From Oceanispirochaeta sp. (GTDB taxonomy: Bacteria > Spirochaetota > Spirochaetia > DSM-2461), in the NCBI GenBank assembly GCA_963666275.2, contig CAXXOA010000001.1, forward strand, positions 1,280,001 through 1,344,000: a stretch of DNA of 64,000 nt, in the 5' to 3' direction. Below, piece after piece: positions 25,035 through 63,975 of this stretch. Within the stretch, counting starts at the first letter, position 1. The number at the start of each line of letters is the position of its first letter. Position numbers and translations under genes: made by a program. Under the pieces are notes generated by a model. It saw nothing but the letters and a program-made list of their open reading frames with translations. It was not told where the DNA came from and made no database searches.

Positions 25035-25057
25035 AAAAAGACTACTGGAGGTAGGAT

Positions 25058-25339: not shown

Positions 25340-25348
25340 TGTATTCCA

Positions 25349-25672
25349 ATGACATATGAAATTTTATGGACAGATTCAGCAAAGCAAGATCTAACAGAAA
25401 TTATTGAATATATTGCTTTCAATGAAATAGAAATAGCAAAGAAACAATTTCTTAGAATTAAAGAATCGGCAGAAAAATTAGAATCTTTTCCTGATCAAGG
25501 TAGAATTATACCTGAGTTATTAAACCAAAATATTAATAAATACCGTGAATTGATAATCTCCCCATGGAGAATAATGTATAAAATAGAAGGAAATACTGTC
25601 TACATATTAGCAGTAATTGATGGCAGAAGAAATATAGAAGATGTACTGATGAAAAGGCAAATAAGGAAATAG
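25349..25672 (+). CDS. RelE/ParE-family toxin
   Basis: WTDSAKQDL..I.EYI, FPDQGRIIPEL, YRELI..PWRIMY, DGRR. Confidence 0.88.
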   Translation: MTYEILWTDSAKQDLTEIIEYIAFNEIEIAKKQFLRIKESAEKLESFPDQGRIIPELLNQNINKYRELIISPWRIMYKIEGNTVYILAVIDGRRNIEDVLMKRQIRK

Positions 25673-25676
25673 ATTT

Positions 25677-25706
25677 CATTACAAGCTTTTGATACTATCA
25701 GCTCTA
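25677..25706 (+). repeat. Truncated attC left arm ending the array
   Basis: 27/30 identical to attC1 positions 10217-10246. Confidence 0.7.
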
Positions 25707-26248
25707 CTTTCATTAAACATTATGGATCGGTTTTGAAGAAATTCAGATAGAATTGTTCCTGGGAGAACCGTATATTCCAAAGATTCGGACACTGCCCGGC
25801 GGTTCATAATACGAAATACCAGAGAGTGGCGATAATCCATAACAGCTTGAGCTGTCTCGAACTGATACATTCCCTGCCATGTGCCGTCCGACTTATCAAC
25901 ACTCCACATTTTTTCCTGAAAACCCGAAGTCCCGGCAATTAATGGAATGGGAATCAGTGAAGCCCAGCGGTTAAAATTAAAGGAATGGCGCTTAAACCTG
26001 AATCGAACAATAAAAACAGTTTCTTCTCCAGTAGATTCAGTCAATTTTTTTGTTCTCAGATATCGGAATTCTGTAAATTTTTTTCCATCATTCATCTCCC
26101 AAACCTGCTCGGAATTTTGGCGGGAAAAATATTGGGATCTTTTTGCAATTCGGATAAAAGACCGCCCTAAATTCATGGGCGGAAAGTTTTTCCATGTCCC
26201 TTTATGATGTTCCATCCCTTTCTCCTTTGATACAGTATGACGCTTCAT
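25679..26248 (-). CDS. YdhR-like putative monooxygenase
   Basis: IAGTSGFQEKMW...WQGMYQFET. Confidence 0.6.
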   Translation of the reverse strand: MKRHTVSKEKGMEHHKGTWKNFPPMNLGRSFIRIAKRSQYFSRQNSEQVWEMNDGKKFTEFRYLRTKKLTESTGEETVFIVRFRFKRHSFNFNRWASLIPIPLIAGTSGFQEKMWSVDKSDGTWQGMYQFETAQAVMDYRHSLVFRIMNRRAVSESLEYTVLPGTILSEFLQNRSIMFNESRADSIKSL

Positions 26249-38011: not shown

Positions 38012-38597
38012 GAGTACCGTGTTTTCCCTATTGCTGATAAAACTCATGAAGTCGGTGATGAACAGGGATGATAATCCCGTTCAATGGCAGCAGCTTCTTC
38101 AAAATCAGGGAGATCTGAGTGATTATCTGTCCCGGATGGCTCTGGAGTTGGTGATTTTTGAAGATGAAGGGTTCGCCTATTTGAAAAACAGGGAAGAGGA
38201 AGGGGGAGAGGAAATGCCTCGGATGATTGCCAGGAGACCCCTGTCTTATCCGGTCAGTCTTCTCATTGCCCTGCTCAGGAGAAAAATGGCTGAACACGAT
38301 GCCGGCAGCGGGGAAGTCCGTATCATTTTGGACAAACAGGAAATTGTAGACATGATGGCCGTATATTTTCCTTCGGGCATGAACGAAGTACAGTTTGTCC
38401 GTAAGGTCGATGCTTATTTGAAAAGAGTGATGGATATGGGGTTTCTCCGCTATCTGGGAGAAAACAGAGAAAAAATGGAAATTAAAAGGATATTGAAGGC
38501 TTTTGTTGACGCCCAGTGGCTTAATGAATTTGATCAGAAGATGGAAGAGTATACCGCTTACAAGGGAAAATCTGAAACGGTGGAGATAGCCGAATGA
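37995..38597 (+). CDS. jetB: Wadjet JetB (DUF4194)
   Basis: [28 protein letters not shown]. Confidence 0.9.
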
Positions 38598-41500: not shown

Positions 41501-41968
41501 GCAGAATTGGACCGGAAATGGACAAAGAAAGTTACGGATGTACGAAACTGGTTCGACTTTGCCGCTTCGGAACGCTGGAACGAGGATGACAGCGAATATG
41601 AACATCATACCGATTCTGGGGGGAAATCGGGGGGACAGAAGGAAAAACTGGCTTATACGGTTCTGGCCGCCAGCCTGGCTTATCAGTTCGGACTGGAATT
41701 TAATGAAGTCCGTTCCCGAAGTTTTCGATTCGTGGTTATCGACGAAGCATTCGGTCGTGGATCCGATGAATCTGCTCGATACGGACTGGAACTCTTCAGG
41801 AAATTGAACCTCCAGCTCCTTGTGATTACTCCGCTTCAGAAAATTCATATCATCGAGCCTTTTGTCTCCAGTGTGGGATTTGTTTCAAATGAAAATGGAA
41901 AAAGATCCCTCCTGCGGAATTTCACTATCAAAGAATACCGACAGCGGAAGGAAGAGCTTATTCAATGA
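38594..41968 (+). CDS. jetC: Wadjet JetC SMC-like ATPase
   Basis: [14 protein letters not shown], long coiled coil, KSGGQ, VVIDEAF. Confidence 0.93.
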
Positions 41969-43146
41969 ACTGGGGAACCGCCTTTGAGGTCCGGAAGACA
42001 CTTATAAAACGTTGGGATTCAGGAGCTTTAATCAGGCAATTGAAAACAGAAGGACTGGACTTTCCTTTTCGATTAGCTCTGAAAAAGCCTAACTCAAAAG
42101 AACTGAGCGAATTTTTTGAGCAAGTCAGGAACTGGAGCCTGGAGTTGGAAGAACAATGCTTCAACGCTTCCTGGGAACTTGAAAAGACTGAAGTGAATCA
42201 CAGACTGCTGGGGCGCAACCGGATACCCTCGGCCCTGGTCTTTGCAGATTCAAACGCAATCCTGGAATGTATTGGAAAACGGAAAGTTTATGAAGCGTAT
42301 CTCCAATTATATACAACTTTAACGGATCCTTTTCCCGAACTGGAGGAGTGGGCTCTTCAGAAACCTCATCAACTTCTGGAACAGAAAGATGAACTGGAAC
42401 GGTTAATCCGAATACTGAAATGGATAAAAGTCCATCCCCGTCCGGGAATCTATCTGCGGCAGTTAGCCCTGGATGGAGTGGATACAAAATTTATCGAAAG
42501 GAAACGGGGGATTTTATCCGTATGGTTGGATCGGATACTGGAAGAATCGGCTATTGATGTAAAGTATTCCGGAGTTCGGCATTTTGCAAAGCGTTACGGA
42601 TTTCTTAGTAAGCCCGAACTGATCCGAATGTTGTTTCCCCATGTTTCTGACAGCCCCAGCGGTTTCAGCGATCTCAGTGTACGATCTGACGAGTTCTGTC
42701 AGAGGCCTATACGCATAAAGAGAGTCATTGTTATTGAAAACGATATTACTGCCCTGGCCTTCCCTACGCTGCAGGATAGTCTGATCCTATTTGGACGCGG
42801 ATATGATTTCTCCGCTCTTGAACAGGCTGACTGGCTGCAGGAAAGAGATCTCTATTATTGGGGCGATCTGGATACCCACGGATTTGCCATACTTTCTCAG
42901 TTCCGCGGGGTTTTTCCACAGACCCGCTCTCTGATGATGGACCGGAAAACTCTTCTTGATCATAAAGATCTTTGGTCGGCTGAAGAGAAGCCAGTTAAAA
43001 TGCTTCCTAATAATCTGACACCTTCTGAAAAATCTCTTTTCAGAGATCTGGCAGCAGACAAATACGGAAAAAATATCCGTTTGGAACAGGAGTTGATCAG
43101 TTATCCACATATTGTAGATTCTTTGGAATCTTATTTTTCTATGTAA
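41965..43146 (+). CDS. jetD: Wadjet JetD Toprim nuclease (DUF3322/DUF2220)
   Basis: [26 protein letters not shown]. Confidence 0.92.
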
Positions 43147-49235: not shown

Positions 49236-50897
49236 ATGAGAGAACAGTCCCTATCTGGAACAGGAATATCTGGAGTGAGTGTGAAAGTACTGATCGCCGA
49301 TGATGAACACAGAGTATGCCAGCTGATCAGGCATCTTATTCCCTGGGAAGAGTTCGGTCTGGACCTTGCCGGTATTGCCTACAACGGAATCGAAGCCTAT
49401 GAACTGATACGGACGGAGAAACCGGATATTGTCATCACAGATATCCGCATGCCCGGCTATGACGGGCTGACACTCCTTGAAAAAAGCAAGGAGCTGGATC
49501 CTTCCATCAGTTTTATTATTGTCAGCGGGTACAAGGACTTTGAGTATGCCCAGAAAGCCCTGAAATACGGAGCGGAAGACTATATTCTGAAACCTGTCTC
49601 CCATGATGATATCAACAGGATCCTGCGGAAGATCATCGACAGAAGGAACAGTGATCAGAACAGAATTCAGGAAGCCCTGGAAACCAGGGAGGAACTGGAA
49701 CAGAACAGGAATATCCTCAAAAAGGAGCTTGTTAAAAAGCTTCTCAATAGTGATTTCAAATTAGACAGCGAGACCCGGCAGAGTTTATCAAATGGAAATA
49801 TTGTGAATTTCCAGGCCCCCTGTTTTATGGTGTTTATCATTCAGGCGGACTGCATAGATCAGTCCCTTCTGGGGACAGAGCATTACAGTATCTCTGTAAA
49901 AATACTGGAAAGAGTGGAAGAGTTGGTCAACTCCCATGCCGGAGTGGAGGGGATCGAAACTCTGAGTGCCTATACAAAGTACAGTCTGATCTACCTGTGG
50001 GAGTGCCCCGGGCCTGCCATCAGCCGGGACGACTGGGAGCGGCTCCAGGAACAGGCCTCTCAGAAAATTGCCGGTTTCAGTGACTGGAGGGTCACATTCT
50101 GCATGGGGGGCGTGTATCCGGGCCTTGAGAATCTCAGTGCCAGCTATTCCGATGCCGAACTGATACGAAAAGACCGTCTGTTTCAGGGAACCGGGAAGGT
50201 GCTTACCCTGCGGCCGGATCTTCCCGGTTTTGAGAAATTTGAACAGCCTGACAGTGCCCCTCTGGCCGATGCGGTCAATAGAGTCCTGGAGAATCAGGAT
50301 CTGGACCAGTTTGCCTATGGGATCTCCACCTATGTGATCGGACTGACCCGGACGATTACTCATCCGGATCAGCTTTTCCGGACCTATCGATTTCTCTGTG
50401 ATGCGATTTTTGAACAGTTCAGAAAACTCAATGTGAACGGGGATTATATAGGCGAAGCATACGAAACGGCTGCATCCATATTAGACCTGACTCACAATAT
50501 GAAACTCATGAATACCCGTTTGTCCCGGCTGTTCAAAGATATGGCGAAAACTGTAATTTCCTCCCGGAAAGTGCTGGACAATAAACCCATCAGAATCGCC
50601 AAGGATTACATCTCCCGGAATTATGCCGAACCCATCGATCTTAATATGGTTGCCGCCCAGGCCGGTCTGAATCCCATCTATTTCAGTACCCTGTTCAAAA
50701 AGGAAACAGGAATGAATTTCAAGGACTTTCTGGTGGATATCCGTCTTGAGAAGGCCAGGGAGCTGCTTGTGAACAGCAATGAGACCATTCAGGAGATCAG
50801 TCACCTGGTGGGGTACAGGGATACAAGGTATTTCAGCAGAATATTTGCCAGGAATGTAGGCTTGAAACCCAATATCTACAGAAAAATCCATGGCTGA
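49236..50897 (+). CDS. Response regulator with AraC HTH (YesN-like)
   Basis: ADDE, TDIRMP, YILKP; C-terminal AraC domain. Confidence 0.92.
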   Translation: MREQSLSGTGISGVSVKVLIADDEHRVCQLIRHLIPWEEFGLDLAGIAYNGIEAYELIRTEKPDIVITDIRMPGYDGLTLLEKSKELDPSISFIIVSGYKDFEYAQKALKYGAEDYILKPVSHDDINRILRKIIDRRNSDQNRIQEALETREELEQNRNILKKELVKKLLNSDFKLDSETRQSLSNGNIVNFQAPCFMVFIIQADCIDQSLLGTEHYSISVKILERVEELVNSHAGVEGIETLSAYTKYSLIYLWECPGPAISRDDWERLQEQASQKIAGFSDWRVTFCMGGVYPGLENLSASYSDAELIRKDRLFQGTGKVLTLRPDLPGFEKFEQPDSAPLADAVNRVLENQDLDQFAYGISTYVIGLTRTITHPDQLFRTYRFLCDAIFEQFRKLNVNGDYIGEAYETAASILDLTHNMKLMNTRLSRLFKDMAKTVISSRKVLDNKPIRIAKDYISRNYAEPIDLNMVAAQAGLNPIYFSTLFKKETGMNFKDFLVDIRLEKARELLVNSNETIQEISHLVGYRDTRYFSRIFARNVGLKPNIYRKIHG

Positions 50898-51924
50898 TTA
50901 CAAGCTGCACTCCCACTCCCTGGCTGTTGAGCTCAAAAGGCATGTGGCTTTTCTTGTCCTGCTGGGCGTTCTCTTCCTGACGCTGACCTGTCTTCCTGTT
51001 CCCCGGGAATTGTGGGGAACCCTGGGCCGGGTGATCCTGGGCATTCTGCTTTTGGGGGATCTGGTTTCCCTGATTGTGTATGTCTACAGGCCTATTCGGA
51101 AAATGGAAGAGGCAATGAAACTGCTCACCCGGGGAGAACAATCCATTTTTGAGGAATTCAAACCGGAAAAAGACAGTGTCACCCTGTCCATCCATCTGCA
51201 TGAGCTCATTGAGATGCTCAAGCAGTCCCTTGATCGGGAGTACACATCGGATCTGCTGAAAAAAGAAGCTGAACTGAAGGCGCTTCAGAGTCAGATCAAT
51301 CCTCACTTCCTGTATAACGTTCTGGATGCTATCCGGGGACATGCCCTGACCGAGGGGGTTCCTGAAATAGCTGAAATGACGGAAGCCCTGTCGAATCTTT
51401 TCCGTTACAGCGTGAGTTACTGGGAAAACGAAGTTTCCCTGAAGAAGGAACTGGGAAATGTGGCCAGTTTTTTTAAAATTCAGCAGTACAGATTCAATAA
51501 CAAGTTTGATCTGCAGATCCTTGCCGGGGAGGATGAAGAGGAAACCCTGAAATGTCTGCTCCCCAAACTGACCCTGCAGCCCATTATTGAGAACTCCATC
51601 TACCACGGCCTGGAGATGAAACTGGATCACGGGCTGGTGACGATCAGAACCAGACTGTCCCGTACGGTCCTGCTTGTTGAAATCAGTGATGACGGGGTGG
51701 GGATGCCCGCAGAAATGGTCGACCAGTTAAACAGCGCCTTCCGGAACTGGCGGGACGCTCCCGGTGACAGAAAGAACTCCCGGGGAAGCGGCATCGCCCT
51801 TGCCAATGTGAACAGCAGGATCAAGATGATGTATGGAGAGGACTACGGACTCCATGTGTACAGTACGGAAAATTTCGGCACCACCGTGGAAATCCAGCTG
51901 CCTGTAAATAAAGAAGAGACATAG
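50890..51924 (+). CDS. YesM/LytS-type histidine kinase with no extracellular domain
   Basis: LQSQINPHFLYN, LQPIIENSIYHG, DDGVG, GIAL.NV; two adjacent TMs. Confidence 0.9.
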   Translation: MADYKLHSHSLAVELKRHVAFLVLLGVLFLTLTCLPVPRELWGTLGRVILGILLLGDLVSLIVYVYRPIRKMEEAMKLLTRGEQSIFEEFKPEKDSVTLSIHLHELIEMLKQSLDREYTSDLLKKEAELKALQSQINPHFLYNVLDAIRGHALTEGVPEIAEMTEALSNLFRYSVSYWENEVSLKKELGNVASFFKIQQYRFNNKFDLQILAGEDEEETLKCLLPKLTLQPIIENSIYHGLEMKLDHGLVTIRTRLSRTVLLVEISDDGVGMPAEMVDQLNSAFRNWRDAPGDRKNSRGSGIALANVNSRIKMMYGEDYGLHVYSTENFGTTVEIQLPVNKEET

Positions 51925-51953
51925 GCCGCACTTGTGAGACCGGAGCAGGGAAT

Positions 51954-53408
51954 ATGGAAGAGTTAATACGAATCAGAGAACTTTCTACAGAAAACCCCTA
52001 TGAAGCATCCCTCAAGGATTTCAGACTCCAGTCTTTTGAAGGGGAGATCCTCGGGCTGGTGGGGCTGAACGGTTCCGGGAAAAGAACTCTCGTCAAAGTT
52101 CTGTCGGGAGAGATAAATCCTGTCGGCGGCCATGTGTTTCTTCAGGGAAAAGAGATTATCAGCCCCCTTCTGAAACCCGGAAGGAATCAGCTCGAACGGG
52201 AGGGCCTCTTTGTTGTTCAGAATATCAACAGACTTATCAAAGATCTGAGCATTTCAGAAAATCTCTCCATCTCCTCCAATATGAATTTCTTCAGTATGCT
52301 CCGGGCTCCCCACAATCTTGAAAAAATATCAGCCTCTGTTCTGGATGAGTTTATTCCGGAACTGGACCGTGATACCCCTGTGGACTATCTGCCCCCTGCG
52401 GAACATGCCCGGGTCGGTCTTCTGAAAGCCTATATGGAGGGAGCAAAGCTGATTGTTCTGGATGGGGTCCTTGAGGTCTGCCGCCGCAAAGAGGAAGAGG
52501 CGCTGATCACTCTGTTGAAACGGCTCAGGTCCAGAGGAGTGGGGATCATTGTCACCTACAACCGGGTGGCCCCTTTTCTGCAGTCTTTTGACAGGGTTGC
52601 CGTGATCTCCGGCGGGCAGCTTAAGAATATCATGTTCAGGGACAGCTTTAATCAGAGTCAGCTGGCGGACCTGATTGTCGGGGGCAAATACAGGGAACAA
52701 ACAGCTCACCGGGAAAGTTCCGATCCGCCGGTGAGCAGCAGGATCCTGGATGTCAGAAACATTTCTCTGGGAAAGAACTTCAGAAATTGCAGTTTTTATC
52801 TCTGCAGCGGAGAGATCCTGGGCATCCATGATCCTTTGAATGAAACCGCCCACAGGCTTCTTCAGTTGTTCAGCGGCATCATTCCCCTGGAACAGGGGAG
52901 AATCCATATAAACGGAAGAGTGCAGGAGCTTTTGAAAGAGCATAATGCCTTGCAGTCGGGATTAGGGATCGTTTCTGAAAAATTTTTCGAATACTCCTTT
53001 TTCAGAGGTTTGAACGCCGGGGAGAATCTGGAGATCTCGGCCGCGAAATCTGCTTCATCCCTGTGGGGGCACATCCCTTCTTCGTTGCATCACTATTTTC
53101 AGAAGAACTATCTCAGGAGCATAGGATTTTCAGAAGAGCTGCTGGAACAGCCTGTGGAGTATCTTGATCGGGATCTTCAGTTTATCCTGGTGCTTCATAT
53201 GAAGATCCTGAGCGGAGCAAAAATCTTTATTCTTGAAAACCCTGTTCAGAGTGCGGACCTTCTGTCCCGTGATCTTATCTACAGAAAAATGAGCTCTCTG
53301 CGGAAAAAGGGAATGGGTGCCATTTTTATCTCCGGTTCCATGGGCGAACTCGATGGTTTCTGCGACAGAATTCTCTACTGCGACTATAGTGAAGGAATAT
53401 TGAAATGA
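51954..53408 (+). CDS. Degenerate sugar-ABC ATP-binding protein
   Basis: RbsA-like length and fold, but GLNGSGKR, LPPAE, IVLDGV, LDRDL, ILENP replace the canonical motifs. Confidence 0.75.
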   Translation: MEELIRIRELSTENPYEASLKDFRLQSFEGEILGLVGLNGSGKRTLVKVLSGEINPVGGHVFLQGKEIISPLLKPGRNQLEREGLFVVQNINRLIKDLSISENLSISSNMNFFSMLRAPHNLEKISASVLDEFIPELDRDTPVDYLPPAEHARVGLLKAYMEGAKLIVLDGVLEVCRRKEEEALITLLKRLRSRGVGIIVTYNRVAPFLQSFDRVAVISGGQLKNIMFRDSFNQSQLADLIVGGKYREQTAHRESSDPPVSSRILDVRNISLGKNFRNCSFYLCSGEILGIHDPLNETAHRLLQLFSGIIPLEQGRIHINGRVQELLKEHNALQSGLGIVSEKFFEYSFFRGLNAGENLEISAAKSASSLWGHIPSSLHHYFQKNYLRSIGFSEELLEQPVEYLDRDLQFILVLHMKILSGAKIFILENPVQSADLLSRDLIYRKMSSLRKKGMGAIFISGSMGELDGFCDRILYCDYSEGILK

Positions 53409-54355
53409 AAGGTTCTACGGGGTATCTGAAAAAAAAGATTCATTACAATACGGCTGTGATTCTTATCCTGCTTCTGGGAGAATTCCTCGTTCTGAAGGTA
53501 TTTGTTCCCCAGTATCTATCACTGGGAAATATCATAAGCATCGGGAGACAGTCCTCCATCACAGGGATTATCGCCATCGCAATGGGGTTTGTCCTGATCA
53601 GCGGGGGCATTGATTTTTCCCTGGGATCCCAGATTGCCTTCAGCAGTATGATTGTCTCCATTTTCATGGTACGTCTGCACTTTCCCGTTGCCCCGGCACT
53701 GATTCTGGGCCTGACGGTATGCACGTTCTCAGGATTTCTTAACGGGATGATCTGTGCAAAAATCCGGATACACCCTTTTATTCTGACCATGGCGACAGGA
53801 GTCATTTACAGGGCCGCCGCCAAGGTCCTGAACTGGGGGATGCCTCTCTACGGGCTGCCCGAGGGGTTTCTGGGACTGGATCAGTTTCAGTTCCTCGGGC
53901 TGCCCCAGTCGCTTCTTATGCTTCTGCTCTGCCTTCTGGCCGGGCATTATATCCTGAGAAAAACCTACCTGGGAAAGTATATCTATGCCATCGGAATCGA
54001 TGAGAAAACGGCGGAGTTCGCCGGCATCAATACAAAGAAGATCAAATGGACGGTCTATGGAATCGCCGGTTTTTTCTGCGGAATCGCGGGCATCCTCCTC
54101 CTCGCCCGTGTGGGATCCGCCCAGCCTTCGGCCCTTTCCGGGATTGAACTGGATGTGCTTGTGGCCGCTGCGATCGGCGGTGTGGGATTCAAGGGAGGGA
54201 AGGGCTATCTTATCAATATAGTTCTGGGAGTCCTTATCATGGAATTTTTCGGCGATGCTCTGATTATTTTCGGTGTGGGCGAATATTTCCGGAATATTTT
54301 CAAGGGACTCGTTCTTCTCCTGGCCCTCTATATGGATGATGCGGTCAGATCTTAA
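53405..54355 (+). CDS. Sugar ABC transporter permease (RbsC-like)
   Basis: SGGIDFS, GKYIYAIG, ELDVLVAAAIGG. Confidence 0.88.
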   Translation: MKGSTGYLKKKIHYNTAVILILLLGEFLVLKVFVPQYLSLGNIISIGRQSSITGIIAIAMGFVLISGGIDFSLGSQIAFSSMIVSIFMVRLHFPVAPALILGLTVCTFSGFLNGMICAKIRIHPFILTMATGVIYRAAAKVLNWGMPLYGLPEGFLGLDQFQFLGLPQSLLMLLLCLLAGHYILRKTYLGKYIYAIGIDEKTAEFAGINTKKIKWTVYGIAGFFCGIAGILLLARVGSAQPSALSGIELDVLVAAAIGGVGFKGGKGYLINIVLGVLIMEFFGDALIIFGVGEYFRNIFKGLVLLLALYMDDAVRS

Positions 54356-54443
54356 TTTTCTCCCCTCATATCTTTAATCTGTCACATTGCGGTGTGAATT
54401 CTGCCCCTGTAAAATAAACTTATCATCAAGGGGAGAATGAATT

Positions 54444-55967
54444 TTGCCAAAACCTATTTTAGAAATGAAGGATATCACCAAATACTTTTCGGGTGTTCAG
54501 GTACTGGATAAGGTCTGTCTGAAGGTTATGCCCGGAGAAGTGCATGCGCTGATGGGTGAGAACGGGGCGGGCAAGTCAACACTAATGAATATCCTGATGG
54601 GAATTCATACGGCCGACGGCGGTGAAATCTTTCTGGAAGGGAAAGAGATTTCCAACAAAACTCCCAGGGAAGCCATGGACAGAGGCATCTCCATGATTCA
54701 TCAGGAGCTGCATCCCATCCGGGATATGGACGTGACGGAAAATATCTTTCTGGGAAGGGAAATCCGGAAAGGTACGGACGGTATTATAAGCCTGGTCAAT
54801 AAAAAAGAGATGCTGCATAAGGCCCGGGAGCTGTTCGAAGAACTGGGTATTGCCATCAGTCCTTCGGCTCTCATGCGGGATCTCAGTGTGGCTCAATGCC
54901 AGCTCATTGAAATGGTCAAAGCCATTTCCATTTCAGCCAAAGTTATAATTATGGATGAACCGACTTCTGCCATTACGGATAAAGAGGTTGATATCCTGTT
55001 CAAACAGATCCGCTATCTTAAATCCAAAGGGGTCTCCATCATCTATATCTCTCATAAAATGGACGAAATCTTTCAGATAGCCGATTCCATTACGGTCCTG
55101 CGGGACGGCCAGTATATCGGGACCGATGCTTCGGCAAATCTGAATAATGACAAACTTATAAGCATGATGGTGGGCCGGGAAATCAGCGGAATCTATCCGA
55201 AAGAGACCGTTTCGATTGGTGATGTCACCATGGAGGTGAAAAACCTCAGCTGGGGAAAAAGGGTCAGGAATGTCAATTTTGAACTCCATCAGGGAGAGAT
55301 CCTGGGGCTGGCAGGTCTTGTAGGCGCCGGGCGAAGCGAACTTGTGGAAACCCTGTTCGGCATTAACAGCAAAACTTCCGGAGAGATCTATATCCGGGGG
55401 AACAGGACGGATATCCGCAGACCTGCGGATGCGATCTCCCATCGTATCGCTCTGATCACCGAAGACAGGAAGAGATCGGGATTGAATCTGATCGGTTCGA
55501 TCACCGAAAACGTCACCCTGGCGTCTCTGGGCTCTCTTTTCTCGAAAGGGATTATCAACAAAAAACTGGAAGGATCCCTCACAGAAGAGAGTATTAAAAA
55601 ACACAAAGTGAAGACAGTTTCCAGAAAAGCCCTGGTCAAATCGCTCAGCGGCGGCAATCAGCAGAAGGTGGTCATCGCCAAGTGGCTTCTGACAGAACCG
55701 GATATCATCATTATGGATGAACCTACCCGGGGCATCGATGTGGGAGCCAAGCGGGATATCTACCTGCTGCTGGGAGAGCTTGTAAAAGCTGGAAAATCTG
55801 TACTTGTTATCTCATCGGAGATCCCCGAGATCATGGGGATTGCCGACCGGATCCTGATCATGGCGGAAGGACAGGTTACCGGAGAGCTGATGCGGGAAGA
55901 ATTTACACAGGAAAAAATTATGCATTACGCGTCAAAATTCAACAAAGGGAAAAAGAATGAAAAATAG
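54444..55967 (+). CDS. Sugar ABC transporter ATP-binding protein (RbsA/MglA-like)
   Basis: GENGAGKST, MDEPT, LSGGNQQKV, DEPTRGIDVGAK. Confidence 0.93.
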   Translation: MPKPILEMKDITKYFSGVQVLDKVCLKVMPGEVHALMGENGAGKSTLMNILMGIHTADGGEIFLEGKEISNKTPREAMDRGISMIHQELHPIRDMDVTENIFLGREIRKGTDGIISLVNKKEMLHKARELFEELGIAISPSALMRDLSVAQCQLIEMVKAISISAKVIIMDEPTSAITDKEVDILFKQIRYLKSKGVSIIYISHKMDEIFQIADSITVLRDGQYIGTDASANLNNDKLISMMVGREISGIYPKETVSIGDVTMEVKNLSWGKRVRNVNFELHQGEILGLAGLVGAGRSELVETLFGINSKTSGEIYIRGNRTDIRRPADAISHRIALITEDRKRSGLNLIGSITENVTLASLGSLFSKGIINKKLEGSLTEESIKKHKVKTVSRKALVKSLSGGNQQKVVIAKWLLTEPDIIIMDEPTRGIDVGAKRDIYLLLGELVKAGKSVLVISSEIPEIMGIADRILIMAEGQVTGELMREEFTQEKIMHYASKFNKGKKNEK

Positions 55968-56919
55968 AAATGGAATATTGGCTTTAAGATCCATGAGGGA
56001 ACTGGGAATTGTTTTTGTTTTTATCTGTATCCTGGTAACCCTGATGATTCTATCACCCAATGCTTTTGCCAGGCCTGCCAACCTGATCAATATATTCAAA
56101 CAGGCCTCTATAAACGGGATTCTCGCCATGGGAATGATGTTTGTTATCATCTCCGGAGGGATCGACCTCTCTGTGGGATCCATTGTGGCCCTGACTGGTG
56201 TGGTGTCCGCCAGCTTTGCCCATCCCGGAGAGTACCCTCTGATCGTTCCCATTCTTCTGGCTCTAATCCTGGGACTTTTTATAGGATGGCTGAACGGCGT
56301 GGGTGTTTCCTACGGAAATATACCGGCCTTTATTGTGACACTGGGGATGATGACCATCATCCGGGGAGTGGCGCTTATCGTGGCAAAGGGAGCTCCTGTT
56401 TTCGGCGTGACAGATCAGTATGAACTCATCGCCGGAGGATTCCTTTTTGACACAATCCCATTTCTGGTTGTCTATTTCACGGCGATAACTGCATTCAGCG
56501 CCTATGTATTGAATAAGACAGTCTTCGGAAGGCGTGTCTATGCTGTGGGCGGGAATGAAATCTCCGCGGCTTTTTCGGGAATCAATGTCAATAAAATACG
56601 GATTATGGTATTTATGATCTCCGGACTCTTTGCGGGATTCGCCGGATTGCTCCTGGCCTCAAGAACTGTCTCGGGGAATCCCACGGCGGGTCAGTCCTAC
56701 GAACTGGATGCCATTGCCGCCGTTATTATCGGAGGCGTCAGTATGTCCGGCGGTTCCGGGAAATGGTATGGAACCGTGGTGGGCGCGCTGCTCATCGCCG
56801 TTATAGGAAATGGTCTGGACATACTCAATGTGTCGTCCCACTACCAGCTGGTTATCAAAGGGGCCATTATCATTTCTGCCGTACTACTGGATGTTAAAAG
56901 CAGGGAAAAAACGGTCTAG
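55957..56919 (+). CDS. Sugar ABC transporter permease
   Basis: GGIDLSVG, GRRVYAVGGN, YELDAIAAVIIGG. Confidence 0.93.
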   Translation: MKNRNGILALRSMRELGIVFVFICILVTLMILSPNAFARPANLINIFKQASINGILAMGMMFVIISGGIDLSVGSIVALTGVVSASFAHPGEYPLIVPILLALILGLFIGWLNGVGVSYGNIPAFIVTLGMMTIIRGVALIVAKGAPVFGVTDQYELIAGGFLFDTIPFLVVYFTAITAFSAYVLNKTVFGRRVYAVGGNEISAAFSGINVNKIRIMVFMISGLFAGFAGLLLASRTVSGNPTAGQSYELDAIAAVIIGGVSMSGGSGKWYGTVVGALLIAVIGNGLDILNVSSHYQLVIKGAIIISAVLLDVKSREKTV

Positions 56920-56949
56920 GCTGTTTGATATATATTAGAGGAGGAAGAT

Positions 56950-57879
56950 ATGAAAAAAATCTTTGCAATGGTTTTATTGTCGGTATTTGCACTCACAACC
57001 GGTCTGTTTGCTGCCGGACAGGGTGACAATGAAGGAAAGCCCCAGAAATATGCACTTATGATGAGTCATATGACCAATGCCTTCACCATGGAAATGTCCA
57101 GCGCGGTGAAGGAGAAAGCTGAAGAACTGGGAGTAAATCTGACTGTATTTGACGGAGAGCAGGATGTTTCCAAACAGATCAGCCAGGTGGAATCCGCGAT
57201 CATTCAGGGATATGTGGGAATTGTGATCGAACCTGTATCCGTGGATGGCGTTAAACCTGCCGTCAAGGCTGCCAAAGAAGCGGGTATACCGCTGATTACC
57301 CTGAACCAGAAAATCACTGATCAGGAACTGGCCAGTGCGTTTGTCGGAGCCAACCCCATCGAAGGGGGAGAGCTTGAAATGAGAACCGCTGCCGAAGAGA
57401 TGGGCGGATCCGGAAAAGTGGCTTTTCTGCTCGGACCTTTAGGTTCGGATGCGCAGATCGGCCGAACCCAGGGGTATAAAAATGTTCTGAAAGATTACCC
57501 CGGCATTGAAGTCGTCTACGAACAGACTGCCAACTGGAGAACCGATGAGGCTCTGGAACTGGTTGAAAACTGGCTTCAGACCGGTGTGGAACTGAAAGCC
57601 ATCGTGGCTAACAACGACGGTATGGCTCTTGGAGCACTGAAAGCCGTGGAAGATGCCAAGCTTCTGGATCAGATTAAAATCTACGGTCTTGATGCCACTC
57701 CCGATGCCATGGCTGCTGTCAAAGAAGGACGTCTGTCTGCGACTATTTCCCAGAGTACTTCCGAACAGGGAAAAACAGCAATGGAATCTATTGTGAAAAT
57801 TGTAAACGGAGAATCCATTCCCTCTGAAATCATTGTTGGACACACTCTGATTAACAGTTCCAATATCAACGATTTCTAA
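56950..57879 (+). CDS. Sugar ABC substrate-binding protein (RbsB-like)
   Basis: Signal peptide; ANW, NNDGMALGA, GLDAT. Confidence 0.92.
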   Translation: MKKIFAMVLLSVFALTTGLFAAGQGDNEGKPQKYALMMSHMTNAFTMEMSSAVKEKAEELGVNLTVFDGEQDVSKQISQVESAIIQGYVGIVIEPVSVDGVKPAVKAAKEAGIPLITLNQKITDQELASAFVGANPIEGGELEMRTAAEEMGGSGKVAFLLGPLGSDAQIGRTQGYKNVLKDYPGIEVVYEQTANWRTDEALELVENWLQTGVELKAIVANNDGMALGALKAVEDAKLLDQIKIYGLDATPDAMAAVKEGRLSATISQSTSEQGKTAMESIVKIVNGESIPSEIIVGHTLINSSNINDF

Positions 57880-57905
57880 TTCGGAGAACAACATCTCTTT
57901 TCGGG

Positions 57906-57936
57906 GACCGGCAGATTGCTGCCGGTCCTTTTTTTT
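57906..57936 (+). terminator. Rho-independent terminator
   Basis: GACCGGCAG-ATTG-CTGCCGGTC followed by a T-run. Confidence 0.85.
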
Positions 57937-58102: not shown

Positions 58103-58118
58103 TGGCACTTTTATTGCA
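58103..58118 (+). promoter_or_regulatory. Sigma54 (-24/-12) promoter
   Basis: TGGCAC-TTTTA-TTGCA, consensus spacing, ~60 bp upstream of cheY. Confidence 0.8.
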
Positions 58119-58176
58119 TTACTGTTCAGTAATAAAAACTTAGTAACAGAATAAATTAAAAAAACGGAGTCTGCCT

Positions 58177-58545
58177 GTGAAACTGTTAATTGTGGATGAT
58201 TCCAATATTATCCGTCGTGCCATCCAATTCTATCTGAAAGAGTTCAATATGGAGATCTGCGGTTCCGTCAGCAACGGAGAAGACGCGGTCCGCTGCTATG
58301 AGGAGCAGAAGCCCGATCTGGTGACCATGGATATCACCATGCCCGGTATGGACGGCCTCAGCGCCCTGGAGAAAATCATCGAAATAGATCCTGATGCGTC
58401 TGTGATTGTCATCTCAGCCCTGAAAGATAAAAGCACAGGCATCAAAGCCCTGACCCTGGGGGCCTGCGGATTCCTTTCCAAACCCTTTACCCCTGATCAG
58501 CTGAAAGAGGAAATACAGGCTTTCCTGGAGGAACGGAGCACATGA
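58177..58545 (+). CDS. cheY: Single-domain response regulator (CheY-like)
   Basis: IVDDS, MDITMPGMDG, ISA, KPF. Confidence 0.85.
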   Translation: MKLLIVDDSNIIRRAIQFYLKEFNMEICGSVSNGEDAVRCYEEQKPDLVTMDITMPGMDGLSALEKIIEIDPDASVIVISALKDKSTGIKALTLGACGFLSKPFTPDQLKEEIQAFLEERST

Positions 58546-59006
58546 AAGAAGAAGAGATTAAAGTCTTTATTGATATAGTCACCCACTATTTCCGGGAGAT
58601 CTCGGGAGAGGAAGCCCGCATGGGGGTTCCCTTTATCAAAAACGATAACCTGTCTGTCATGGACTATACAGGGATCATCGGGATCTCCGGTAAATACAGG
58701 GGAGGGATCTACCTCTCCGCCGACAGCGATCTTCTGGCCGAAGTGGCCTCATGCATTCTGGGGCTGGAAGCGGATCTGGTAGACGGGGAAGCCCGGGAGG
58801 ATATGCTGGGGGAGATTACCAATACCATCGCCGGGAATGCCCGCAGCAGCTTCGGCAGCCAGTTTATGATCTCCGTTCCCATTGTCATCAAGGGGCGCCC
58901 CGAGGATATCTCGTTCAAACTGAAACCGCCCGTTTTTGTCATCCCCATCACCTGGCGGGATCACTCCTGTTTTCTGGCCATCGGACTGGAAGAGGAGGCA
59001 TTATGA
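58542..59006 (+). CDS. cheX: CheX phosphatase
   Basis: TGIIGISG, GEITNTIAGN, ISVP. Confidence 0.9.
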   Translation: MKEEEIKVFIDIVTHYFREISGEEARMGVPFIKNDNLSVMDYTGIIGISGKYRGGIYLSADSDLLAEVASCILGLEADLVDGEAREDMLGEITNTIAGNARSSFGSQFMISVPIVIKGRPEDISFKLKPPVFVIPITWRDHSCFLAIGLEEEAL

Positions 59007-61756
59007 TTGATATTCAGCAGCTTCTGGACGTGCTCTGGGTCATCATGGCATCGAGCCTTGTCTTTTTTATGCAGGCCGGATTTTCCATGGTGGAATCGGG
59101 GCTGACCCGTTCCAAAAACAGCATCAATGTGGCCGTCAAAAACCTGACCGACCTGGGGGTCTCCATCCTGATCTTCTGGGCCGTGGGGTTTGCCCTGATG
59201 TTCGGAAACAGTTACCGGGGTGTCTCGGGGATGAGCAACTGGTTTTTCCGCTTTTCCGACAATACCCTTATGATCTCGGCCGCCTTCTTTCTGTTCCAGG
59301 CTATGTTCTGCAGCACTTCGGCGACCATTGTTTCCGGTGCTGTGGCCGAAAGGATGCGCTACGCCTCCTATATCATAAGCACCATCCTGCTGTCGGGGAT
59401 TATCTATCCCGTCTTCGGCCACTGGGTCTGGGGCGGCGCAGGGGGCAGTGAAATCGGCCTCGGCTCAGGCTGGCTGGGGGCTATGGGATTTGTCGACTTT
59501 GCCGGCTCTTCGGTGGTTCACAGCGTGGGCGGCTGGGTAGGCCTGGCGATCCTTCTGATCATAGGGCCCCGGACCGGACGCTTTGCCGAAGACGGCACAT
59601 CCCGCCCTGTTCCCGGGAGCAGTATCCCCATGGCCGTAGGCGGGGTGATTATCCTGTGGTTCGGCTGGATCGGCTTTAACGGGGGCAGTACCCTGGTTAT
59701 GGACGGCAGCGTGCCCGGAATCATTATGAGAACCTGTCTGGCCGCTTCGGCGGGTATGGTAGGAGCCCTGGCGGCAGGGTGGATCATCAAGAAAACTCCC
59801 GACGTGGGATTTGTCCTGAACGGCGCCCTGGCCGGGCTTGTGGCTATTACCGCTCCGGTTCATGCGGTGAACGAGGTGGAATCGGTGATTATCGGCGCCG
59901 TGGGCGGGCTGGTTATGCTGATCTGTACGGACCTCCTGGAAAAGCTGAAAATCGACGACGCCGTGGGAGCCATACCGGTTCATCTGGCGGCGGGTATCTG
60001 GGGAACCCTGGCAGTGGGAATCTTCGGGGATCCTGAAATCCTGGGGACCACACCGTTGTTCGGTTCCCAGTTTCTGGTTCAGCTGATCGGAGTTGGGGCC
60101 TGCGGTCTCTGGAGTTTCCTCACAGCCTGGATCATCCTGAACATCATCAATAAAATATCGCCCCTCCGGGTTTCTGTAGAAGACGAACACAAAGGTCTCA
60201 ACGTGGCCGAGCACGGGGCATCCACCGAAACCTATCAGCTCTTCCAGGTCATGGAGGAGCAGGCCAGGTCGGGGGATCTTTCCCTGCGAGTGCCTGTGGA
60301 ACCCTTTACAGAAATCGGTCAGATTGCCGCGCGGTACAATGCGGCTCTGGCGGGGTTTGAAGAGAACTCGGTGGCCCGGAGCGACTACCAGACCATTCTG
60401 GACAACGTGAGCGACGGCCTTTTTCTCATTAACAGCGACGGGGCCATCTCACCCAATTACTCGGCGGCCACGGAAGGAATTTTCTGCCGGGAGGATCTGG
60501 CGGGAGTGACGCTGGAAGATCTTGTAAAACCCATGCTCACCGAAAAGGATTTCAAGGCTTTCAGTGACTATCTGCCCCTCCTTTTTGATCCCAAAATGAA
60601 AACAAGAACCCTGGACCGGCTCAATCCCCTGTCGGAAACGGCCTTTTATCTGGACACGGGAAAGGGGGAGTTCAATACCCGGTATCTGAAGTTCCGGTTC
60701 AGCCGGATTGCTCCGGAGGGGATCATTACCCATCTTATGATTCTGGTGACCGACTGTACCGCCGAAAAGGAGATCGCCCAGTCTCTGGAGGCGGAAAGGC
60801 GGAAAAACCAGGGGGAAATGGAGATGTTCTACAGCATCCTTCACCTCCAGCCCGATCTTTTCCGGGAGTTTCTCTCAAGCGCCGAAGAGGACCTGGACAG
60901 AGTCAATGAGGCTCTGGAACATCAGGGAGTAGGACTGGGGCAGCGTCTGGAGGAGATCTTCCGGCATATCCATTCGGTCAAGGGAAACGCCGCTCTCCTG
61001 GAGCTGGATTTCATAGCCCAGAGTGCCCATGAGTTTGAAGACGCCATACAGGAACTTCTGGAGAAAAAAGACCTTCAGAATGACGATTTTCTTGGTCTGA
61101 CCGTTATGCTCAGCGAAATGTACGGCGTGCTGGAGCAGATCCGCCGGCTGATGGAACGGCTCAGCAATTTCAGGGAAAATATGGTGAAACATGATCAGAT
61201 GGGCGGGGAACTGATTGCTCTCTCCCTGCAGAAGCTTGCGGGAAAAACAGCCGAAGAGCTGGGTAAGAAAGTGGAGTTCCGGTTTCAGGATTTCCGGAGC
61301 CGGGACATTCCACCGGCCTACAGAAAACCCCTGAAGGATCTGATGATCCAGCTGGTGCGCAATGCGGTTTCCCACGGTATCGAAGAGGAGAAGATCCGGA
61401 TCATGAACGGAAAAACCCCGGTGGGCCGTCTGGAGATAAAAAGCCGGCTGGACGAGGGCGTTCTGACCCTCACAGTCCGGGACGACGGACGGGGACTGGA
61501 TTTTCTGAAACTGAGAGACCGTTCTGTGCAGCTGAATCCGGACAATCCCAGGGAGGATAAAAAGAGTCTGTTCCTTTCTATGTTCCAGTCGGGAATCTCC
61601 ACCGCAGACGAGGTGGGCCGGCACAGCGGCCGGGGCGTGGGAATGGCTCTTGTAAAAACCATTGCGGAAGAACTGAAGGCCCGGCTTGTGGTGAAAACCA
61701 GGGAAAACCAGTTTTGCGAATTCAATCTTTCCATCCCTCTGGAGGGCAGCTTATGA
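59003..61756 (+). CDS. Ammonium transporter (Amt) fused to HAMP-like, PAS, HPt and CheA-type HATPase domains (917 aa)
   Basis: FMQAGF..ESG, DFAGSSVVH, WFGWIGFN, DDAVGAIPVH; ILDNVSDGLF; FRHIHSVKGNA; QLVRNAVSHG, DDGRG, SGRGVGM; start after GAGGAGG overlapping the cheX stop. Confidence 0.88.
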   Translation: MIDIQQLLDVLWVIMASSLVFFMQAGFSMVESGLTRSKNSINVAVKNLTDLGVSILIFWAVGFALMFGNSYRGVSGMSNWFFRFSDNTLMISAAFFLFQAMFCSTSATIVSGAVAERMRYASYIISTILLSGIIYPVFGHWVWGGAGGSEIGLGSGWLGAMGFVDFAGSSVVHSVGGWVGLAILLIIGPRTGRFAEDGTSRPVPGSSIPMAVGGVIILWFGWIGFNGGSTLVMDGSVPGIIMRTCLAASAGMVGALAAGWIIKKTPDVGFVLNGALAGLVAITAPVHAVNEVESVIIGAVGGLVMLICTDLLEKLKIDDAVGAIPVHLAAGIWGTLAVGIFGDPEILGTTPLFGSQFLVQLIGVGACGLWSFLTAWIILNIINKISPLRVSVEDEHKGLNVAEHGASTETYQLFQVMEEQARSGDLSLRVPVEPFTEIGQIAARYNAALAGFEENSVARSDYQTILDNVSDGLFLINSDGAISPNYSAATEGIFCREDLAGVTLEDLVKPMLTEKDFKAFSDYLPLLFDPKMKTRTLDRLNPLSETAFYLDTGKGEFNTRYLKFRFSRIAPEGIITHLMILVTDCTAEKEIAQSLEAERRKNQGEMEMFYSILHLQPDLFREFLSSAEEDLDRVNEALEHQGVGLGQRLEEIFRHIHSVKGNAALLELDFIAQSAHEFEDAIQELLEKKDLQNDDFLGLTVMLSEMYGVLEQIRRLMERLSNFRENMVKHDQMGGELIALSLQKLAGKTAEELGKKVEFRFQDFRSRDIPPAYRKPLKDLMIQLVRNAVSHGIEEEKIRIMNGKTPVGRLEIKSRLDEGVLTLTVRDDGRGLDFLKLRDRSVQLNPDNPREDKKSLFLSMFQSGISTADEVGRHSGRGVGMALVKTIAEELKARLVVKTRENQFCEFNLSIPLEGSL

Positions 61757-63030
61757 CACCCGATGCGGGACTCCTTGAAAATGTCTCCCATGTGTACGAG
61801 AAGATTCCCGGACAGGATCAGGATGTGGATATCTTTGTACTGGAACCACCCCGGGAGCTGGATAAGGAGGATCCGGAAGGACGGGTTCTCCGGAAGGCCG
61901 GCCCGGGACGGCGCAAATCCAAAACGGTGAGCATGCTCAGTCACAGCCTCTATTATGTGACCGAAGACTGCCCCCTGGACCGGCTTGTGGAGGAACTTTC
62001 CGCCAAGAAGGACCTTTTTTCCATCGGTGTGGTGGACTCCCGGGGAGAAGCCAAGGGCCTTATCATCCGGCGGGAGCTCTTTGATCTTGTAGGCCGGTCG
62101 GGGAACACCGATCCCATGAAAGGGAAGAGGGCCGCCCAGGTTATGAAACTTGTCAAAACCTTTGCTCCCGATACCAGCGTTTTTTCTGTCGGCTCGGTGG
62201 TGGAAGAGGAAATGAAGGAAAGCCTGATCGTCTACTTTATGATCAAGGACGAGTACGGCCGCTTTGCCGGGTCTTTCTCCACCAAGGACCTGATGCTCTT
62301 CTATGCCCGGAACATGAACAGGGAAATGCAGCTGGTACAGGAAATTCAGAGCCGGATCGTCGAGCCCCAGGCCCGGCTGGATCTGTCAGACGGCGGGGCG
62401 GTCTGCGGAGTGAACCGCCATGCCCGGGAGGCCGGAGGAGACTATTTCCTGATCCGCCGGGTCCCGGACGGAAGGATTTTTTATGCCCTGGCGGATGTGT
62501 CGGGCAAGGGATACGCCGCCTCCCTTCTGACGGCAATCATAGGCTCCTTTCTGGAGAATACGACTTTTTCAAAAGGCCTTGCCGGATCCATTGGGAATCT
62601 CAACCGCTTTCTGCAGGAGAAATTCGCCGAAAAGGGGCTTTTTGTCACAGGCGTCTTCGTCCTGTTTGACGAAAAAAGCCCTGTTCTGGAAGTGTGCAAC
62701 TGCGCCCATCCCTTTTTCTATGTCCTGAGACGCAGAAAAATGAGAAAACTGAAGAGCCGTTCCAATCCTCCTCTGGGACTGGAGGGAGTGGATACACTGG
62801 AATGCTTCAATATCCGGCCCGAACCGGGGGACTGTCTGTTCCTCTGCAGCGACGGTATACCCGAACAGATGAATGAACTGGGCGAAACCTTTCCCCTTGC
62901 CTCTCTAGGGGGCATGACCGATCAGATCGACAAAGGGAAATTCCGCGAAAAGGTTCTGTCTGAAATCGACAGCTTCCGGGGATTTGCTCCCCAGCACGAT
63001 GATATTACCCTGCTGGTTCACCGCGTCTAA
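61753..63030 (+). CDS. CBS-like domain plus SpoIIE/PP2C phosphatase
   Basis: GGDYF, ADVSGKG, CSDGI, DDITL; start overlaps the kinase stop. Confidence 0.82.
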   Translation: MTPDAGLLENVSHVYEKIPGQDQDVDIFVLEPPRELDKEDPEGRVLRKAGPGRRKSKTVSMLSHSLYYVTEDCPLDRLVEELSAKKDLFSIGVVDSRGEAKGLIIRRELFDLVGRSGNTDPMKGKRAAQVMKLVKTFAPDTSVFSVGSVVEEEMKESLIVYFMIKDEYGRFAGSFSTKDLMLFYARNMNREMQLVQEIQSRIVEPQARLDLSDGGAVCGVNRHAREAGGDYFLIRRVPDGRIFYALADVSGKGYAASLLTAIIGSFLENTTFSKGLAGSIGNLNRFLQEKFAEKGLFVTGVFVLFDEKSPVLEVCNCAHPFFYVLRRRKMRKLKSRSNPPLGLEGVDTLECFNIRPEPGDCLFLCSDGIPEQMNELGETFPLASLGGMTDQIDKGKFREKVLSEIDSFRGFAPQHDDITLLVHRV

Positions 63031-63069
63031 AGAACACACATCCCTTCATGAAACTGAAGGGAACCCCTT

Positions 63070-63975
63070 TCAGCGGGACGCCTTGTCCAGCAAATCCAGA
63101 TCCTCTCTGTCCAGTTCCAGTTCGGGAGCTCTGAAAATGGTTTCCAGCTGTGTAATGCTTGTTGCACTGACGATCGGGGCTGTGATATCCGGCTTAGCCA
63201 GCAGCCAGGCAAGAGATACCATGGCGGGAGAGGCATTGTGCTTTTCCGACACCCGGTCCAGCGCGCTTAGTACATTCAAGCCCTGTTTGTTAAGATAGGG
63301 ACGGACCATTTCCGCCCGGGCTGAGCCTTCAAGGTCCTGGGTGCTTCTGTATTTCCCCGTAAGAAATCCGGCAGCCAGGGAAAAATAGGGAAACACCGAA
63401 AGATCGTATTCCTGCACCAGCGGCCTGTAGTTCTCCTCATAGGAAGGTTCTACAAGACTGTATTTAGGCTGGAGAACCGCATAGGCCGGGAGGGATTCTC
63501 CTGCTGATACCTCCATAGACTCTTTCAGCCGCTGGGGCGTCAGGTTCGATGCCCCTATATACCGGACCTTACCGGCTTTGATGATTTCATCGTAGGCCGA
63601 AAGGGTTTCTTCCACAGGGGTTTTCCCGTCATCAAAATGGGTATAGTAGATATCGATATAATCGGTCTGAAGGCGCCGGAGGGACTCATCTACACTTTTC
63701 AGAATGTGTTTCCTGCTGCTGTCTATGGGATGATTCTGATTCTGGGAACCCACCTTTGTGGCAATAACAATGCGGTCTCTGTTTTTCCGTTCACTCATCC
63801 AGGAACCGATGATTTTTTCTGACGTTTCTCCCACACCATTATGCCACCAGGGGTAGGTATCGGCAGTGTCTATAAAATTGAATCCTCCATCCTGAAAGGC
63901 ATCGAGAATTTCAAAGGACTGTTTCTGATCCAGAGTCCAGCCGAAAACATTGCCTCCGAAGTTGATAGGGCCCAC
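63070..63975 (-). CDS. Aldo/keto reductase (start probably beyond the window end)
   Basis: GGNVFGW, IDTADTY, SLRRLQTDYID, GKVRYIGASN. Confidence 0.92.
   Translation of the reverse strand: MGPINFGGNVFGWTLDQKQSFEILDAFQDGGFNFIDTADTYPWWHNGVGETSEKIIGSWMSERKNRDRIVIATKVGSQNQNHPIDSSRKHILKSVDESLRRLQTDYIDIYYTHFDDGKTPVEETLSAYDEIIKAGKVRYIGASNLTPQRLKESMEVSAGESLPAYAVLQPKYSLVEPSYEENYRPLVQEYDLSVFPYFSLAAGFLTGKYRSTQDLEGSARAEMVRPYLNKQGLNVLSALDRVSEKHNASPAMVSLAWLLAKPDITAPIVSATSITQLETIFRAPELELDREDLDLLDKASR

Follow-up and report, generated by a model that had tools for sequence, protein, structure and literature searches.

An Amt domain joined to a CheA-like kinase core in a conserved spirochaete operon: a candidate ammonium-gated phosphorelay

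Amt domains joined to a signalling output are known from two studied ammonium receptors, Sd-Amt1 of Shewanella denitrificans and Ks-Amt5 of Candidatus Kuenenia stuttgartiensis, while kinases built around a CheA-like core are known from CheA itself and from the class III histidine kinases (HKIII). Described here is a locus in which these two halves meet: a four-gene operon at 58103–63030 of a 64-kb stretch (the window) of an Oceanispirochaeta genome that is 97% complete. Its third gene encodes a 917-residue protein (P0001) with Amt, HAMP-like, PAS-like, Hpt and HATPase parts, preceded by genes for a CheY-like regulator and a CheX phosphatase, and followed by one for a CBS-PP2C phosphatase. The favoured reading, to which we give a probability of a little over two in five, is that of an ammonium-gated phosphorelay that acts on an enzyme and not on the flagellar motor. 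Irrespective of the output, it is highly probable that the neighbouring regulator is phosphorylated under the control of ammonium.

Sd-Amt1 (Amt-HAMP-GGDEF; PDB 8qj3, 8qj4 and 8qpf) has its Amt fold, pore, pocket, switch, exit and HAMP junction in common with the fusion protein. PMC11152129 describes, for ammonium receptors, a pocket with N1/N2 ligands, a Lys/Tyr switch and an exit constriction, and reports that Sd-Amt1 binds ammonium rather than transporting it. The output of Sd-Amt1 is a diguanylate cyclase, whereas the fusion carries a PAS-like unit, an Hpt domain and a CheA-type ATPase, and is encoded with its own regulator and CheX. Ks-Amt5 (Amt-HisKA-HATPase; PDB 6eu6) likewise places an Amt domain on a histidine kinase and shares the pocket residues. 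It has, however, a DHp/HisKA domain and neither HAMP nor PAS, while in the fusion the histidine lies in an Hpt bundle and the operon supplies both a candidate regulator and a phosphatase; the Ks-Amt5 regulator is “yet to be identified”, according to PMC5764959.

With CheA, and the spirochaete cheA-cheW-cheX-cheY operon, the locus has P1-like and P4-like domains and CheX and CheY partners in common; unlike CheA, the fusion has a built-in sensor and no P3 or P5, and its operon is without genes for a methyl-accepting chemotaxis protein (MCP), CheW, CheR or CheB. HKIII, reportedly delineated by Adebali et al. in 2017, comprises a sensor, an Hpt domain and a CheA-type HATPase, without a dimerisation or CheW domain, accompanied by a single-domain regulator and CheX. 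All of these the fusion operon shares with HKIII, differing from it in its Amt input, in having no soluble chemoreceptor gene, in its PP2C or cyclase fourth gene, and in the lack of pilT, with which HKIII reportedly co-occurs, over cut-off in any of the 17 genomes that carry the Amt fusion.

Both halves are therefore of known kinds, and only the Amt input looks undescribed. An earlier note on this DNA, made from the letters alone, had proposed a receptor-independent, one-protein chemosensory input, of an architecture that it did not know as a characterised system; the wiring of kinase, CheY and CheX is that of HKIII. No description of an Amt-Hpt-HATPase fusion was found in the literature searched, although key papers and supplements outside it may list the architecture; the supplements of PMC11152129 gave no matches for Hpt, CheA, HATPase, Treponema or Spirochaet, and the accessible parts of PMC10433425, PMC10767990 and PMC6943060 hold nothing on such a fusion. 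Experimental work on HKIII kinases was likewise not found in that literature. As the operon unites a likely ligand (NH4+), a kinase, a candidate regulator, a phosphatase and a candidate output, the whole path could be rebuilt in vitro, and a class of kinases that has been little studied would gain a definite signal to test. If the fullest form of the favoured reading, given below, is true, this would be the first HKIII with a chemically defined ligand; it would also be the first time that an ammonium receptor shares a single operon with its regulator, its phosphatase and its output.

The Amt domain and the kinase core

The fusion of an Amt domain to a CheA-like kinase is real and conserved. 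Its gene (59003–61756, plus strand, as are all four; domains assigned by Pfam, structure model and alignment) is a single open frame, and 92 full-length homologues of the same layout could be aligned, so a sequencing artefact was rejected. A homologue search with residues 400–917 returned 571 proteins at E ≤ 1e-20; layout was read for the best 120 of these, around 100 of which combine Amt, Hpt and HATPase, nearly all the taxon-named ones being spirochaetes. Residue conservation is given below as counted over the 92 aligned homologues.

Judged by its residues, the Amt domain (residues 11–407; 59033–60223; Pfam Ammonium_transp) is of the ammonium-receptor type. It has W141/S229, F102/F225, the twin histidines H173/H327 (the VVH and PVH pore histidines recognised in the earlier note), the switch pair K46/Y123 and the exit residue N273, and its pocket residues Q24, E31, N47, D50, T108 and S111 align with Q22, E29, N45, D48, T104 and S107 of Sd-Amt1. 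W141, S229, F102, F225, H173 and H327 are found in all 92 homologues, as are K46, T108, S111, Y123 and N273, with Q24 kept in 72 and N47 in 73. The best solved relative is Sd-Amt1 itself (402 bits, E 3e-119), over residues 9–450 and thus reaching into the HAMP region, followed by Ks-Amt5 (308 bits), against 204 bits for Af-Amt1 and 124 for AmtB; by fold, too, Sd-Amt1 and Ks-Amt5 come out on top. The structure model superimposes on 8qj3 with a template-modelling score of 0.96, taken on the target.

Several points call for caution in reading the pocket as that of a receptor. The strict published receptor motif is missed by one residue, L51, where F or T is expected (the equivalent residue does not serve as a ligand in Sd-Amt1), and it is matched by only 2/92 homologues; the relaxed pattern also occurs in the stand-alone, GlnK-linked Amt at C1:137237, one of two such proteins in the source genome; and known transporters, together with dual transport/receptor proteins, fall in the same cluster as the receptors in PMC11152129. 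The last two points, along with a remodelled pocket (Q24R, N47V) in 18 of the 92 homologues and a PAS-like unit that is common to non-Amt relatives, would suit an Amt domain that still transports ammonium, or only anchors the protein, with the kinase gated otherwise, for example by a ligand of the PAS-like domain. This we consider quite improbable: no GlnK gene lies beside the fusion, the Amt-HAMP junction matches that of Sd-Amt1, which binds rather than transports, and each of the 17 carrier genomes has at least one further Amt, so that the fusion copy would be freed for sensing.

The homologues with the altered pocket share Q99H and P209Q in addition to Q24R and N47V, and retain E31, D50 and the twin histidines (P0015, P0016, P0027, P0050–P0052, P0054, P0062, P0065–P0067, P0072–P0076, P0090 and P0093; loci L169, L172, L173 and L176). 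Their metagenome cluster has a PAS-PAS-cyclase as its fourth gene. In this remodelled pocket the arginine perhaps replaces one bound cation, or the ligand may be a different one.

Of the five Amt genes in the source genome, one is that of the kinase fusion. The other four, at C2:816697-818712 (L157), C1:919414-921759 (L156), C1:137237-138547 (L154) and C1:352528-353856 (L155), comprise one Amt-GGDEF gene, one gene for an Amt-MCP chemoreceptor and the amtB genes of two amtB-glnK pairs. Three parallel ammonium-signalling routes in one cell are predicted.

Between the Amt domain and the kinase core (60227–60841) lie a HAMP-like hairpin (~409–453), a putative PAS-like domain (~463–584) and a signalling helix (586–613). 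The HAMP-like and PAS domains proposed in the earlier note fare unequally. For HAMP, the Pfam match of the fusion is weak (E 0.082) and 6/14 relatives match, but the stretch aligns with the HAMP region of Sd-Amt1 and forms a two-helix hairpin in the model. For PAS, Pfam gave no match in the fusion (PAS_4 matches 3/14 relatives) and the best PDB profile match has an E of 0.028; from the alpha/beta unit that the model places at ~463–584 we infer a PAS domain.

The kinase core comprises an Hpt bundle resembling CheA P1 (residues 617–731; 60851–61195; Pfam Hpt 618–712), with the codon of His657 at 60971–60973, and a CheA P4-type HATPase (residues 735–914; 61205–61744; Pfam HATPase_c 780–914), which bears out the Hpt (HSVKG) and CheA-class HATPase noticed earlier. 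None of H657, K660, G661, N787, H791 and D827 varies across the 92 homologues, nor do the glycine boxes or the HATPase residues G829, G831, G876, G878 and G880. The model of the cytoplasmic part (predicted local distance difference score 91.8) matches CheA P4 (1b3q) with a Z of 20.8 and an rmsd of 2.7 over 171 aligned residues, where class I kinases reach at most 15.7, and CheA P1 (1tqg) with a Z of 14.1. The best NCBIfam kinase matches are also CheA models, although far below cut-off.

The alignment with CheA structures is confined to P4 (model 325–507) and P1 (model 204–305), and the last Hpt helix continues straight into the ATPase in the model, with no separate P3 hairpin; this long helix might mediate dimer contacts. 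At E ≤ 0.1, the threshold at which Pfam domains were judged absent from the fusion, there is no H-kinase_dim, HisKA (PF00512) or CheW, the last in keeping with the earlier note, and the protein stops three residues past the ATPase. PMC10782961 finds P1, P3, P4 and P5 in all surveyed CheA. Membership of CheA was rejected, as P1 and P4 are present but P3 and P5 are absent and the sensor is built in; membership of the Ks-Amt5 type was also rejected, given an Hpt in place of HisKA. The layout instead fits the HKIII design: an N-terminal sensor, intact Hpt and HATPase domains, neither P3 nor CheW, and CheY-like and CheX genes in the operon. The fusion bears on how a trimeric Amt could drive a kinase without a P3 domain.

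A conserved three-gene core and its promoter motif

The CheY-like single-domain response regulator (58177–58545; 122 residues, GTG start; Pfam Response_reg) has D7-D8, D52, S81 and K102, and the CheX protein (58542–59006; 154 residues; CheX domain) has E91 and N94, which we take to be the E-x2-N motif. The fourth gene (61753–63030) encodes a 425-residue CBS-PP2C (SpoIIE) phosphatase, with its metal-binding Asp motifs present. All three gene junctions are ATGA overlaps, and a sigma54 −24/−12 motif, TGGCAC-N5-TTGCA, lies at 58103–58118, 74 nucleotides before the cheY start, so that the promoter and four overlapping genes described in the earlier note were both recovered; genes and Pfam domains also agree with its statement that no MCP or CheW gene is present in the operon.

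In the other genomes fetched, cheY-cheX lies directly upstream of the fusion in 16 out of 16, leaving the core of cheY, cheX and amt/kinase intact. The metagenome loci number 26 but are redundant, 25 of them forming 12 clusters at 85% identity; cheX lies upstream in 19, six have no upstream DNA, and one with a truncated kinase (L182) is without cheX. The fusion is patchily distributed, a close one being present in only 2/10 other genomes of its own genus. In an even sample of the phylum (301 genomes), the kinase core was found in 25, and in 13 of these on Amt. Elsewhere, in spirochaetes, Bacteroidota, Verrucomicrobiota and Pseudomonadota, the same core carries GAF, MASE6, 7TMR-DISM, NIT, HAMP or ROK/GAF inputs, and its gene mostly has cheY and cheX as neighbours; a scan of genome contigs gave at least ten loci with long matches, all with other sensors and none with Amt among the matches listed. 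As one core is combined with so many sensors, a layout that works without a receptor is already known, and Amt is one of the sensors that plug into it.

Two of the non-Amt loci, L055:4954-7581 (Marinoscillum luteum) and L059:4954-7557 (Ekhidna lutea), encode this kinase with a NIT (nitrate/nitrite)-HAMP input. A regulator of the same subtype and CheX accompany it, a cheA-cheR cluster lies upstream, and in L055 the kinase is followed by a SpoIIE gene.

In the genome loci compared, the sigma54 motif accompanies only the Amt version of the kinase. TGGCAC-N5-TTGCA has one exact match in the window; with up to one mismatch it has three, where 1.23 would be expected. One such motif is thus weak alone, and it is the conservation of its position that lends support: with the same tolerance it stands 27–79 nucleotides before cheY in 13/17 Amt-fusion genomes, against 0/13 loci with non-Amt sensors and 8/1500 random upstream windows. 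The gene for sigma54 itself, rpoN, was found in 16 of the 17 carriers, the exception (G233) being also without the motif. In the source genome the motif further precedes both amtB-glnK operons, glnA type III, nifH and amt-GGDEF, as well as unrelated genes. A sigma54 activator of GAF-AAA-HTH layout is encoded upstream of amtB. The operon is probably part of a sigma54 nitrogen regulon in this genome and, from the motif shared with amtB-glnK, glnA and nifH, its induction under nitrogen shortage is a fair inference.

Association with nitrogen fixation is partial. Nine of the 17 carriers have nifH over cut-off; in the even phylum sample the figure is 5/13 carriers, compared with 16/288 other genomes (uncorrected for kinship). 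The operon is divergent from the nifH cluster in G171 (L111:5983-13653), and lies approximately 8 kb from nifH in G030 (C1:429675-440129). The system would add a nitrogen-sensing layer in free-living, often nitrogen-fixing spirochaetes. To be set against such a role are the 8/13 carriers of the phylum sample with nifH below cut-off, the four carrier genomes in which the motif is missing, and the metagenome loci, where it was found in 1/17 testable loci and missing in 16, several of them from the G233 cluster. Given this uneven occurrence, sigma54 control appears to be lineage-dependent: the earlier claim of such control agrees with the motif and rpoN here and with the 13 genomes, but such control is not universal. 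A NifA-type TGT-N10-ACA site 114 nucleotides upstream was treated as chance, being absent before nifH and amtB, not conserved, and matched by a background of 175/3723.

A proposed route from ammonium to an output

A path from ammonium to output can be proposed in five steps. Made in nitrogen shortage, the fusion would let NH4+ pass the twin-His pore and occupy the N1/N2 pocket, shifting the C-terminal HAMP by analogy with Sd-Amt1 and Ks-Amt5. The HAMP, PAS-like domain and signalling helix would then switch the ATPase, leading to phosphorylation of His657. The kinase would most likely be on with ammonium, a sign taken from these two receptors; Ks-Amt5 phosphorylation peaks at low ammonium, according to PMC5764959. 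From His657 the neighbouring regulator would receive the phosphate on its Asp52, and CheX would take it off again, as the fixed gene order suggests. Since methylation enzymes are absent, there would be no adaptation, and the system would report the level or return of ammonium rather than a gradient. In the last and least certain step, the phosphorylated regulator may control the product of the fourth gene in trans (CBS-PP2C here, adenylate cyclase in many relatives), adjusting the nitrogen-starved state. Held a shade more tentatively than the favoured reading is its fuller form: an adaptation-free ammonium detector assembled from chemotaxis parts, in which a trimeric Amt gates a CheA core without a dimerisation domain. 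A CheY subtype dedicated to the system would then act in trans on an output enzyme, PP2C or adenylate cyclase, that can be exchanged.

An enzyme output is favoured by the identity of the fourth gene, which codes for an enzyme of the output type in 8 of the 15 genomes where it is visible and in 11 of the 12 metagenome clusters. Among the 17 carriers it is CBS-PP2C in five, a class III cyclase in three, nothing related in seven, and cut off in two. Of the 26 metagenome loci, 19 have a cyclase in this place (Pfam confirmed eight), two have CBS-PP2C and one has something else, while in four the gene is unseen; by cluster, there are ten cyclases, one CBS-PP2C and one with neither. A Lys before the G-D motif marks adenylate cyclases, and as 10/12 cyclases examined have it, the fourth-gene cyclases are predicted to be adenylate cyclases. 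The PP2C, which the earlier note had counted as part of the system, does belong to the operon here, but it is found in just 5/17 genomes and is otherwise replaced by a cyclase or by nothing.

The evidence on this step is not all of one kind, and the following weighs against an enzyme output: the absence of a fourth gene in 7/15 genomes; the lack of a receiver domain in the PP2C and the PAS-cyclases; a receiver-cyclase beside an Amt kinase (L184) that is without the phospho-Asp, although one beside a GAF kinase (L123) has it; a CBS-PP2C paralogue that stands alone elsewhere in the source genome, opposite a STAS-HATPase gene; the presence of fliM in all 17 carriers; and the weakness of the regulator clade described below. 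A predicted complex of the regulator with a PP2C dimer scored 0.01, which counts neither way. With a constant three-gene core, a fourth gene that is often missing, and output enzymes without a working receiver, the relay might instead run to an unlinked target, such as a sigma54 activator (the GAF-AAA-HTH protein encoded upstream of amtB would be a candidate) or some other protein of nitrogen control, with the fourth gene as no more than a co-transcribed passenger. This appears unlikely, because a fourth gene that abuts the kinase almost invariably encodes a cyclase or PP2C, and does so in several families, which would not be expected of random passengers.

A motility output, one of the two suggested in the earlier note, found no specific support. 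Ammonium taxis or kinesis would have the phosphorylated regulator bind FliM, or compete in the motility CheY pool, changing reversals without a receptor array. Besides the ubiquity of fliM in carriers, this could draw on CheX being a chemotaxis phosphatase, and on the closest paralogue of the regulator in the source genome, which, at 42.6% identity, is the CheY encoded in the cheA-cheW-cheX-cheY operon. It is nevertheless unlikely, if worth keeping in view, as there is no CheR, CheB or MCP in the operon, hence no adaptation, and the separate Amt-MCP fusion already gives a classical route. The regulator also points elsewhere: across the cassette regulators helix 4 reads S-A-L-x-D-K-x-T, compared with S-A-L-G-K-Q-D in motility CheY, and 25 of them group apart from motility CheY, weakly (Shimodaira–Hasegawa-like likelihood-ratio support 83, in a quick tree with 38/76 branches open, the careful search being unfinished). 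Furthermore, members of this regulator clade occur in genomes in which fliM was not found (4 of 5 tested; completeness not given), including those of the Bacteroidota Ekhidna and Marinoscillum.

The last alternative is that the system controls twitching by type IV pili, reportedly proposed in 2017 as what HKIII systems do. The architecture and gene neighbours fit HKIII, and a link between HKIII and pili is quoted second-hand in PMC6501615. However, pilT (TIGR01420) is over cut-off in 0/17 carriers, against 5/14 in a control; it has no match at E ≤ 1e-20 in the source genome, and none over cut-off in the Ekhidna and Marinoscillum genomes. The absence from the carriers disfavours the published proposal for these organisms, making it highly improbable here, and reopens what HKIII systems control; the operon, if the reading as an adaptation-free detector is true, would be a counter-example to a pilus function.

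Other features of the genome and window

Two further CheA-like genes are of note. The cheA of the cheA-cheW-cheX-cheY operon (L151 near 9054; G000 C1 near 2021054) is split by a frameshift in the assembly; of two runs of one sample, one gave a contig with eight bases fewer at this site, whereas the second agrees with the assembly, which may mean a mixed sample there. A third CheA-like gene (L158:5402-7267; G000 C1:2399398-2401266), near flagellar genes, encodes Hpt, P2, HATPase and a faint CheW, with no H-kinase_dim match at E ≤ 1e-4.

Upstream of the ammonium operon, the window contains a response regulator gene and a sugar ATP-binding cassette transporter cluster (49236–57879), with no sign of a link between this cluster and the operon. 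Its periplasmic binding protein gene is followed by a terminator-like hairpin with a T run (57903–57930, plus strand; 12-pair stem), which matches the terminator consensus, ends the sugar operon and sets it apart from the fusion operon; a scan with that consensus, as matches only, gave nine sites against 7.0 in shuffles. Downstream, a hairpin (63041–63062, minus strand) separates the PP2C gene from a convergent aldo-keto reductase gene (63070–63975, minus strand).

Further away, a low-GC island (~8000–26000; 26–39% against ~48% for the genome) holds small gene pairs and several genes without an assignment, and positions 9051–10205 match type IV restriction/Mrr-like models weakly. A complete Wadjet type I set, JetA-JetB-JetC-JetD, occupies 36548–43143.

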